Shown here: positions 1 through 2,270 of the stretch, in pieces
Layout of the letters: each line of letters begins with the position of its first letter
Position numbering within the stretch: the stretch's first letter is position 1
Assembly: GCF_003334255.1 (NCBI RefSeq)
Contig: NZ_QOWU01000138.1
DNA length: 2,270 nucleotides
Strand: one strand, 5' to 3'
DNA from: Escherichia coli
Lineage (GTDB): Bacteria > Pseudomonadota > Gammaproteobacteria > Enterobacterales > Enterobacteriaceae
Notes under the pieces: model-generated
What the model was told of the DNA's origin: nothing
Database searches by the model: none
What the model saw: only the letters and a program-made list of their open reading frames with translations
Position numbers and translations under genes: made by a program

Positions 1-25
1 GTAAGCGTAAAGCCAATGCCGTCTG
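1..25. repeat. Left terminal inverted repeat (IRL) of the IS66-family element; inner boundary approximate
   Basis: The window starts with 5'-GTAAGCGTAAAGCCAATGCC..., the terminal motif typical of IS66-family inverted repeats. The inner extent cannot be fixed because the right inverted repeat is not in the window for comparison. Confidence 0.55.
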
Positions 26-85: not shown

Positions 86-520
86 ATGGATAAACCTACA
101 GACTGGCGCTCCGGAACCCGCCGGATATTTTCTAATGAATTTAAACTTCATATGGTTGAACTGGCTTCGAAACCAAATGCCAATGTTGCACAACTGGCCC
201 GGGAACATGGCGTTGATAACAACCTGATTTTTAAATGGCTACGCCTCTGGCAAAGAGAAGGACGTATTTCTCGTAGAATGCCTCCAACTATTGTAGGCCC
301 TACAGTATCACAATCTTTTCCGGCCTCTCCGACTCTGGTTCCAGTGGAACTTATCGACACCCCGCGCTGTGCTACAGATGCTCCTGCTCCGGAGGCATTA
401 TCAGTTGCTTGTGCAGCTTCCTGCCATGTGGAATTCCATTACGGTAAAATGATGCTGGAAAATCCTTCACCAGAGCTGCTCACGGTGTTGATCCGTGAGC
501 TGACCGGGAGGGGACGATGA
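86..520 (+). CDS. tnpA: IS66-family TnpA (orf1): small helix-turn-helix transposase accessory protein
   Basis: The six-frame track gives ORF 83..520, but 83 is a TTG. The ATG at 86 has GGAG 8 nt upstream and is the preferred start, giving 144 aa. The N-terminal region (RRIFSNEFKLHMVELASKPNANVAQLAREHGVDNNLIFKWLRLWQREG) resembles the HTH 'transposase_8'-type domain of IS66 orf1 proteins. The stop TGA overlaps the tnpB start. Confidence 0.85.
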   Translation: MDKPTDWRSGTRRIFSNEFKLHMVELASKPNANVAQLAREHGVDNNLIFKWLRLWQREGRISRRMPPTIVGPTVSQSFPASPTLVPVELIDTPRCATDAPAPEALSVACAASCHVEFHYGKMMLENPSPELLTVLIRELTGRGR

Positions 521-867
521 TTTCACTCCCATCAGGTACCCGTATCTGGCTCGTTGCCGGCGTTACTGATATGCGTAAATCCTTCAACGGTCTGGGGGAG
601 CAGATACAGCATGTGCTGGATGATAACCCCTTCTCCGGTCACCTGTTTATCTTCCGTGGCCGACGGGGAGACATGATTAAAATCCTGTGGGCTGATGCTG
701 ATGGTCTGTGCCTGTTCACCAAACGCCTTGAGGAAGGTCAGTTTATCTGGCCTGCGGTGCGTGACGGTAAGATATCCATTACCCGCTCGCAACTGGCAAT
801 GCTCCTCGATAAGCTGGACTGGCGTCAGCCAAAAACATCCCGCCTTAACGCACTGACAATGTTGTAA
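517..867 (+). CDS. tnpB: IS66-family TnpB (IS66 Orf2-like protein), 116 aa; function in transposition not defined
   Basis: ATG at 517 overlaps the tnpA stop (ATGA at 517-520) and is preceded by GGGAGGGG at about 503-510. Size and sequence (IWLVAGVTDMRKSFNGLGEQIQ...GHLFIFRGRRGDMIKILWADADGLCLFTKRLE) are typical of IS66 Orf2 proteins. Stop TAA at 865-867. Confidence 0.88.
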   Translation: MISLPSGTRIWLVAGVTDMRKSFNGLGEQIQHVLDDNPFSGHLFIFRGRRGDMIKILWADADGLCLFTKRLEEGQFIWPAVRDGKISITRSQLAMLLDKLDWRQPKTSRLNALTML

Positions 868-897: not shown

Positions 898-2270
898 ATG
901 AGTCAGAAATACCTCATTCGCATCGCTGAGCTGGAAAGGCTGCTCTCTGAGCAGGCTGAAGCCCTCCGTCAGAAAGACCAGCAACTGAGTCTGGTTGAAG
1001 AGACGGAGGCCTTCCTGCGCTCTGCACTGGCACGTGCCGAAGAAAAGATCGAAGAAGATGAACGGGAAATAGAGCATCTGCGGGCTCAGATAGAAAAACT
1101 GCGCCGGATGCTGTTCGGAACCCGTTCTGAAAAACTGCGTCGTGAGGTTGAACAGGCTGAAGCCCTGCTGAAACAACGCGAGCAGGAAAGCGATCGTTAC
1201 AGTGGGCGTGAGGATGACCCGCTGGTTCCCCGCCAGTTGCGACAGTCGCGCCATCGTCGTCCGTTACCGGCACATCTCCCCCGTGAAATATACCGCCTGG
1301 AGCCTGAAGAAAGCTGTTGCCCGGAGTGTGGCGGTGAGCTGGATTATCTGGGGGAAGTCAGCGCAGAACAACTGGAACTGGTGAGCAGCGCCCTGAAAGG
1401 GATCCGCACAGAACGGGTAAAAAAAGCCTGTACAAAATGTGACTGCATCGTTGAAGCACCGGCACCATCCCGTCCGATAGAGCGTGGTATCGCGGGCCCG
1501 GGGTTACTTGCCCGCGTGTTAACGGGAAAATACTGCGAACACCTGCCACTGTATCGTCAGAGTGAAATCTTTGCCCGCCAGGGTGTCGAACTGAGCCGTG
1601 CCTTACTCTCCAACTGGGTTGATGCGTGCTGCCAGTTAATGACTCCGCTGAATGATGCCCTGTACAGTTATGTGATGAACACCCGCAAGGTTCACACTGA
1701 TGACACACCAGTAAAAGTACTGGCACCGGGCAGGAAGAAGGCGAAAACAGGATATATCTGGACGTATGTCCGGGATGACCGAAATGCCGATTCGCCAGAA
1801 CCTCCGGCGGTCTGGTTCGCCTACTCACCGGACCATCAGGGTAAACATCCGGAGCAACACCTTCGTCCCTTCCGGGGTATCCTGCAGGCAGATGCGTTCG
1901 CAGGTTACGATCGGCTGTTCAGTGCCGAACGTGAAGGCGGCGCGTTGACGGAAGCAGGATGCTGGGCTCATGCGCGGCGCAAAATCCACGATGTATATAT
2001 CAGTACCAAAAGCGCGACGGCGGAAGAAGCACTGAAACTAATCGGCGAACTGTACGCCATTGAGCACGAAATACGCGGGTTGCCGGTGTCTGAACGCCTG
2101 GCGGTCAGGCAAATGCAGAGTAAACCGCTACTGACTTCCCTGTATAAGCTGATGCAGGAGAAAGAACACACGTTATCGAAAAAATGCCGTCTGAGAGATG
2201 CGTTCCGGTATATCAGGAAGCACTGGGTTGCGTTGTGCAACTTCTGTGATGACGGTCTGGCGGAGGCGGA
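898..2270 (+). CDS. tnpC: IS66-family TnpC DDE transposase, 3'-truncated by the window edge (457 codons present, no stop)
   Basis: Open frame from ATG 898 to the window end with no stop, which is why it is absent from the ORF track. Translation begins MSQKYLIRIAELERLLSEQAEALRQKDQQL... (heptad, Leu/Glu-rich coiled coil). It has Cys clusters CCPEC (1315-1329) and CTKCDC (1429-1446), candidate catalytic residues in HTDDTP (1699-1704), QADAFAGYD (1891-1911) and EAGCWAHARRK (1951-1980), matching the IS66 transposase DDE signature. The antisense ORFs across this span are shadows. Confidence 0.92.
   Translation, partial: MSQKYLIRIAELERLLSEQAEALRQKDQQLSLVEETEAFLRSALARAEEKIEEDEREIEHLRAQIEKLRRMLFGTRSEKLRREVEQAEALLKQREQESDRYSGREDDPLVPRQLRQSRHRRPLPAHLPREIYRLEPEESCCPECGGELDYLGEVSAEQLELVSSALKGIRTERVKKACTKCDCIVEAPAPSRPIERGIAGPGLLARVLTGKYCEHLPLYRQSEIFARQGVELSRALLSNWVDACCQLMTPLNDALYSYVMNTRKVHTDDTPVKVLAPGRKKAKTGYIWTYVRDDRNADSPEPPAVWFAYSPDHQGKHPEQHLRPFRGILQADAFAGYDRLFSAEREGGALTEAGCWAHARRKIHDVYISTKSATAEEALKLIGELYAIEHEIRGLPVSERLAVRQMQSKPLLTSLYKLMQEKEHTLSKKCRLRDAFRYIRKHWVALCNFCDDGLAEA

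Follow-up and report, generated by a model that had tools for sequence, protein, structure and literature searches.

The window analysed here is a stretch of 2,270 nucleotides (nt) from contig NZ_QOWU01000138.1 of Escherichia coli assembly GCF_003334255.1. It carries nt 1-2270, the left 89%, of ISEc43, an insertion sequence (IS) of the IS66 family with a length of 2541 bp, and comprises the left inverted repeat, the genes tnpA and tnpB, and codons 1-457 of the 537 codons of tnpC. Position 1 of the window is the first base of ISEc43, and in related and complete records the annotation of the flanking gene ends one base earlier. Thousands of E. coli records match the window, the best of them at 99.8-100% identity, and in hundreds the match is to RefSeq-annotated ISEc43 at 99.9-100%. 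Records that show 1-3 mismatches in 2270 nt name the gene "IS66-like element ISEc43 family transposase" in RefSeq and have tnpB and another transposase gene upstream of it. The name was assigned through this annotation of near-identical copies rather than through the ISfinder reference sequence. The window is an already known element, ISEc43 itself, with the architecture of the IS66 family, namely the tnpA-tnpB-tnpC layout with an IS66-type TnpB. By exact-protein look-up, the window makes up the entire contig LYBB01000321.1 (2270 bp; draft assembly GCA_002190285.1), a contig common to four samples. ISEc43 is a named and routinely annotated IS carried by more than 2000 complete E. coli genomes, so the significance of this particular window is very small, and the useful outcome of the analysis lies in corrections to an initial annotation of it, which had described the product of tnpC as an IS66 transposase with a full set of motifs.

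The features of the left end of the element and of tnpC are given below, with amino acid (aa) positions in TnpC; fractions refer to 89 aligned family members, and ISCth4 is an IS256/Mutator element used for comparison.

1-24, plus strand: left terminal inverted repeat, GTAAGCGT...; its first 8 nt are the same as at the right end of intact copies, with which it agrees at about 16 of 24 positions.
898-2270, plus strand: tnpC, codons 1-457 of 537, the contig end falling within codon 458 (open frame, NCBIfam, Pfam).
907-1116, plus strand: N-terminal helix with heptad periodicity, aa 4-73 (a single uninterrupted helix in the AlphaFold model; test of heptad a/d positions).
1309-1443, plus strand: zf-IS66 zinc module, aa 138-182 (Pfam PF13005, E = 5e-10), with candidate ligands C141 (1318-1320), C144 (1327-1329), C178 (1429-1431), and C181 (1438-1440).
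1315-1329, plus strand: CCPEC, aa 140-144.
1429-1446, plus strand: CTKCDC, aa 178-183.
1483-2270, plus strand: DDE_Tnp_IS66 domain, truncated (positions 1-251 of the 284 of the Pfam model).
1699-1701, plus strand: D268, predicted first catalytic Asp, in strand β1 (aa 264-276) and part of a DD pair at 1699-1704 (aa 268-269); 89/89; paired weakly with ISCth4 D175 by hhalign.
1891-1893, plus strand: D332, predicted second catalytic Asp, just after strand β4 (aa 328-330); 88/89; paired weakly with ISCth4 D241 by hhalign.
1951-1953, plus strand: E352, the catalytic Glu candidate of the initial annotation, within strand β5 (aa 351-353) and probably non-catalytic; 73/89 (82%).
1960-1980, plus strand: CWAHARR, a C-x-x-H motif (C355 and H358, each 89/89) followed by R360 (87/89) and R361 (88/89), within AGCWAHARRK at 1954-1983; the predicted insertion domain starts with this motif.
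1960-2262, plus strand: predicted four-helix insertion domain, aa ~355-455, between β5 and the Glu-bearing helix (model helices aa 356-370, 373-391, 397-423, and 431-451).

Both ends of the 2541-bp element begin GTAAGCGT..., and the terminus at window positions 1-24 is of the GTAAGCG type found in IS66 elements. Target duplications of 8 bp flank the element, CGAAAGGC in the copy designated L002 and AAATATCC in copy L001. The right inverted repeat and the target duplication lie beyond the window, yet they are present around the same element in copies L001, L002, and L005. A published ISEc43 insertion likewise has 8-bp repeats (PMC6531882). Considered together, it is very probable that the window represents nt 1-2270 of ISEc43, that its TnpC follows the domain order of a DDE transposase with a ribonuclease H (RNase H) fold, and that the third catalytic carboxylate of this enzyme is E463.

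Translation of 898-2270 gave 457 codons with zero stops, in agreement with the initial annotation, which had reported neither a frameshift nor a premature stop. Its identification of the product as an IS66 TnpC was borne out by the profile hidden Markov model searches that it had proposed as a check. Despite its truncation, the protein scored 354.3 bits (E = 8e-106) with the NCBIfam equivalog NF033517 (transpos_IS66), whose curated cut-off is 180, and Pfam placed LZ_Tnp_IS66 (aa 60-130, E = 2e-12), zf-IS66, and DDE_Tnp_IS66 (aa 196-454, E = 5e-81) within the open reading frame (ORF). Judged by these profile matches, TnpC is an IS66-family transposase far beyond chance. The Pfam order LZ, zf, DDE, and DDE_C is represented by its first three members in the window and by all four in an intact protein whose first 457 aa are identical. 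In the intact TnpC of 537 aa (copies L002 and L004), DDE_Tnp_IS66 covers aa 196-486 and is followed by DDE_Tnp_IS66_C at aa 494-530. Of this protein, 85% is encoded in the window. The final 80 codons and the right inverted repeat are cut off by the contig end, and with them the DDE domain loses its last 32 residues and the whole of DDE_Tnp_IS66_C falls outside. Since an intact TnpC of 537 aa with full C-terminal domains exists, the missing C-terminus is an assembly break. The motifs named in the initial annotation (CCPEC, CTKCDC, DD, D, E, and AGCWAHARRK) are all in frame at the positions listed above, where it had placed them. However, its claim that the window contains the full IS66 motif set has to be withdrawn, as the DDE model is covered only to position 251 of 284 and both the C-terminal domain and E463 are outside.

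Conservation was assessed on relatives recovered from a search of 1.84 billion cluster representatives, which returned 43,972 of them. The alignment comprised 89 sequences, these being intact ISEc43 TnpC and 88 full-length relatives (33-48% identity) chosen among the top 150 cluster representatives, which also included fragments of near-identical copies. The two aspartates proposed as catalytic in the initial annotation, D268 and D332, are 100% and 99% conserved, and its CWAHARRK motif is equally well founded, with C355 and H358 conserved at 100%. ISfinder and TnPedia are said to describe a DDE motif plus a CwAH-rR motif for these transposases, and the latter is present after the second Asp (C355 W356 A357 H358 A359 R360 R361). 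The residue E463, located in the sequence DNNTAER (DNN-x-x-ER), is kept in 87/89 sequences (98%). The two sequences that do not keep it look degenerate, one also being without D332 and the other having a scrambled C-terminus. In this copy, E463 would be encoded at nt 2284-2286, which is 14-16 nt past the window end. The window therefore includes D268 and D332 without a complete D, D, E set, the best-supported Glu being outside, and the set is incomplete because the sequence is truncated and not because it is mutated.

An AlphaFold2 model of full-length TnpC, built on the 89 diverse homologues, had a predicted local distance difference test score (pLDDT) of 92.8 and a predicted template modelling score (pTM) of 0.81. 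Its core consists of β1, β2, and β3, a short helix, β4, another helix, and β5, with E352 inside this last strand. The four insertion helices follow, and after them a helix of aa 460-476 carries E463 near its start. Among solved structures compared with Foldseek, only the chains of ISCth4 TnpA were significant (E = 4e-8 to 1e-5). This enzyme uses D175, D241, and E348, has a C262-x-x-H265 motif, and possesses an insertion domain of four helices, which separates the last core strand from the Glu helix (PMC7780238); E348 was located in TTNTIE, in the sequence recovered from a phmmer alignment. The two enzymes share an RNase H core whose last strand leads straight into a CxxH motif, an insertion of four helices, and then a (T/N)N-x-x-E motif, with similar spacing (D-64-D-23-CxxH in TnpC and D-66-D-21-CxxH in ISCth4; PDB 6XG8 and 6XGX). 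On the basis of conservation, placement in the model, and the architecture of ISCth4, the catalytic triad is predicted with good confidence to be D268, D332, and E463.

According to this prediction, TnpC would present, in order, the heptad helix of aa 4-73, the LZ_Tnp_IS66 segment, the zinc module, helical DNA-binding elements, and the RNase H-fold DDE core. The three carboxylates would coordinate two Mg2+ ions, with which the enzyme would cleave the element ends and carry out strand transfer, and insertion would yield the 8-bp target duplications that are seen in related copies. H358 could contact the scissile phosphate, as does the His of the C/DxxH motif in Hermes (PMC7780238).

Two other residues deserve consideration as the third carboxylate. 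The initial annotation had favored E352, which would imply a compact DDE motif made of D268 (or D269), D332, and E352, with 20 residues from the second Asp to the Glu, CWAHARR as an accessory motif, and the full set inside the window. E352 is the majority residue at its position and lies two residues ahead of the invariant CxxH, so that it is probably near the active site. However, 16/89 otherwise intact homologues carry a different residue there (L, P, R, K, S, or I), and 15 of these keep D268, D332, CxxH, and E463. In RNase H-fold DDE enzymes, β5 and a helix must come after the second Asp, and a spacing of 20 residues is too short for this fold; in the model, E352 is inside β5 and not on a helix, whereas the Glu of ISCth4 comes after the insertion domain. 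It is very unlikely that E352 is the catalytic Glu, and the compact triad as a whole is very improbable. The mapping places the catalytic residue elsewhere, at E463, an outcome that the initial annotation had itself named as refuting its reading. The other residue is E389, in the LYxIE motif (nt 2062-2064), which is also inside the window and is kept in 88/89 sequences, the one exception having Asp. In the model, it closes the second helix of the predicted insertion domain (aa 373-391) and does not belong to the core helix. A weak alignment shows no conserved acid in the matching segment of ISCth4, and the (T/N)N-x-x-E motif common to the IS256 family matches E463 instead. A triad completed by E389 is very improbable. 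The choice of E463 implies that the Glu ahead of CWAHARR should not be read as the IS66 catalytic Glu, which would be the Glu of DNNxxER after the insertion domain.

Several points nevertheless weigh against the assignment of E463 and the mechanism built on it. E389 is as conserved as E463 (99%), so that conservation by itself does not separate the two. Profile-profile comparison paired D268 with D175, D332 with D241, C355 with C262, and H358 with H265 at an hhalign E of 0.13, and E463 with E348 (NNtAE and TNtIE) at an E of 0.35, neither of which is significant alone. The profile on the IS256 side included only close relatives of ISCth4 (at least 63% identity), and the profile alignments therefore fit the structural mapping, yet are not significant; the local match obtained with one ISCth4 sequence alone was uninformative. 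No solved structure or mutagenesis of an IS66-family TnpC was found in the resources searched, sequence searches of solved structures with the protein and with the 89-sequence profile returned nothing relevant, and no paper giving IS66 catalytic residue numbers was found among the accessible literature. The functions assigned to the coiled coil, to the zinc module, and to TnpA and TnpB are putative.

The N-terminal region supports a further refinement. In one register over aa 4-73, the a/d positions hold L, I, V, or M in 70% of cases, as compared with 39% for shuffled sequences, and none of 2000 shuffles reached the observed value. The helix is probably a coiled-coil element that may serve in dimerization. 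The heptad region placed at about 898-1200 in the initial annotation thus has a real periodicity, although it is shorter (nt 907-1116), and in a second helix (aa 79-98) the heptad signal was not significant. Within the first helix, the sequence QLSLV (aa 29-33, window 982-996) resembles QL[SD]LF, the consensus of the beta sliding-clamp binding motif.

The initial annotation had also described two Cys clusters as a zinc finger, and the zf-IS66 match agrees with this, though not every cysteine is conserved. C141, C144, C178, and C181 are kept in 82-87 of the 89 sequences, and C140 and C183 are variable; only four of the six cluster cysteines are conserved, and the zinc site is therefore of the type CxxC...CxxC. 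In the model, a fold rich in beta-hairpins covers aa 129-186. Compared with WP_000080172.1, the ISEc43 transposase of 537 aa, the TnpC encoded here has two aa differences, V168G (codon 1399-1401) and G298D (codon 1789-1791). Position 168 is V, I, or L in 86/89 family members and sits in a strand of the zinc module in the model. V168G may be harmful because the position is a conserved hydrophobic one within this strand.

The initial annotation had called this copy apparently intact and potentially active, subject to the missing C-terminus. The window does not settle the state of the copy, and the evidence leans to a non-mobile or interrupted one. None of the complete genome or plasmid records matches the window exactly. 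The nearest of them, which is a 100-kb plasmid of strain G6/7, is one base off (nt 850), and its tnpC is interrupted by ISEc45, an IS of the IS110 family (1446 bp). ISEc45 is inserted after nt 2323 of ISEc43, in tnpC codon 475 (GKKN|YVFF), 53 nt past the window (L001 5323/5324; also in L005-L007 and L008-L010). By exact-protein look-ups, the identical 2270 nt were found in one contig (L004) with an intact tnpC of 537 aa and in six with the ISEc45 insertion, which leaves a read-through product of 522 aa; the interrupted form is thus the commoner continuation of this sequence, with six contigs against one. The junction was considered as the cause of the contig end at position 2270 and was rejected, as it is located at 2323 and copies L001 and L002 are identical over 2271-2323. 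Because the contig begins exactly at the IS end, a collapsed repeat is suggested, that is, a contig made from several copies, and when a repeat contig breaks off within a gene, the intactness of a given copy cannot be read from it.

Alternatively, the 3' end of this copy may be intact, and the copy would then be an ISEc43 that is active and autonomous. The frame stays open throughout the window, L004 continues from the identical 2270 nt into an intact tnpC and a right inverted repeat, and a contig start exactly at the IS end would be expected if copies with different flanks had collapsed. However, the six interrupted contigs and the only near-identical complete record all have ISEc45 after nt 2323, and the segment of nt 1380-1810 has 100% identity in only 1/20,395 complete-genome records. 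Moreover, all contigs that carry the identical 2270 nt have one left flank in common, ...GCGAAAATATCC, and nothing therefore indicates that the variant has moved. L004 itself (4644 onward) has AAATATCC as its left flank and TAATAACT as its right flank, with no target duplication, and a truncated IS110-type gene adjoins its right inverted repeat, an arrangement that points to recombination or to an assembly join through a repeat. The G168 described above also argues against an active copy. An intact and autonomous element is thus unlikely here, and a non-mobile or interrupted copy is favored.

The ISEc43/ISEc45 junction is present in 266/5426 complete E. coli genomes, at different loci, and this pattern looks like sequence-specific targeting of a conserved stretch of tnpC. 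In E. coli 042, a second ISEc45 adjoins a fragment of a different IS66-family tnpC at the homologous position. Three of the ISEc43::ISEc45 composites (L008, L009, and L010) are found just downstream of genes for serine protease autotransporter toxins, these being pic on the E. coli 042 chromosome, sepA on the O104:H4 pAA plasmid, and sat in strain 118UI.

Compared with known systems, the window shows 99.9% nt identity with ISEc43 over 2270 nt, with the same gene layout and the same left end, and differs in TnpC by V168G and G298D. With IS66 and IS679, following the definition of the family in ISfinder and in Han et al. 2001, it shares the three genes, the tnpA stop overlapping the tnpB start, the GTAAGCG... 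terminus, and the LZ, zinc-finger, and DDE Pfam domains of TnpC, to which related copies add the 8-bp duplications and the intact protein the C-terminal domain, and the architecture is no different; the sequences of other family members have diverged, as reflected in the identities of the 88 aligned relatives. The comparison with ISCth4 reveals differences as well as similarities. The insertion domain of IS66 TnpC is larger (~100 aa against 65 aa), and the protein has further parts, namely a coiled coil at its N-terminus, a zinc module, and an extra C-terminal domain, and would work with TnpA and TnpB. TnpC follows the IS256/Mutator motif order of D, D, C/DxxH, an all-alpha insertion domain, and E. 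However, there was no Pfam PF00872 (Transposase_mut) match in the window or in intact TnpC, and the hhalign E was the 0.13 given above. TnpC resembles IS256/Mutator transposases in fold and motif order only and is not a member by sequence. The eukaryotic transposases with alpha-helical insertion domains (Hermes/hAT, the P element, and RAG1/Transib) have much larger insertion domains and other DNA-binding domains, and in structure they resemble TnpC far less than ISCth4 does, with Foldseek E values of at least 0.07. Majorek et al. 2014 place IS66 in a small RNase H-like clade, and no more.

At the level of the families, IS66 TnpC may be an under-recognized structural sister of the IS256/Mutator transposases, with the order D, D, CxxH, insertion, and E, although this may already be found in reviews. 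If so, IS66 elements may share their chemistry, such as a copy-out/paste-in mechanism. The IS110-family element ISEc45 may specifically target the conserved stretch of IS66-family tnpC at codon 475, in which case it would live as a parasite on other ISs by disrupting their transposase gene. These proposals are tentative and somewhat doubtful, and neither is specific to this window.

Upstream of tnpC, the window contains the two accessory genes of the element:

86-520, plus strand: tnpA, encoding a 144-aa accessory protein that contains HTH_Tnp_1 (RefSeq coding sequence WP_001309734.1 at the same place in identical copies; Pfam PF01527).
517-867, plus strand: tnpB, IS66-type accessory protein of 116 aa (NCBIfam IS66_TnpB, 119 bits against a cut-off of 50; ORF list).

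TnpA matched the NCBIfam IS66-type TnpA models at E values of 1e-18 and 4e-17, under their curated cut-offs. The tnpA stop overlaps the tnpB start in an ATGA at 517-520, an arrangement that suggests translational coupling, and 30 nt separate the tnpB stop from the tnpC start. TnpA and TnpB would serve as accessory factors, as they reportedly do in IS679, where both are said to be required.

Searches with Rfam gave zero RNA-family matches in the window, and promoter-like and terminator-like sites occurred there at chance level. Antisense ORFs at 532-1254, 1358-1828, and 914-1273 were rejected as genes because they have no family matches and are unannotated in the RefSeq copies. The first of them, of 240 aa on the minus strand, overlies tnpB and the coiled-coil part of tnpC and is most likely a by-product of the composition of the sense strand.

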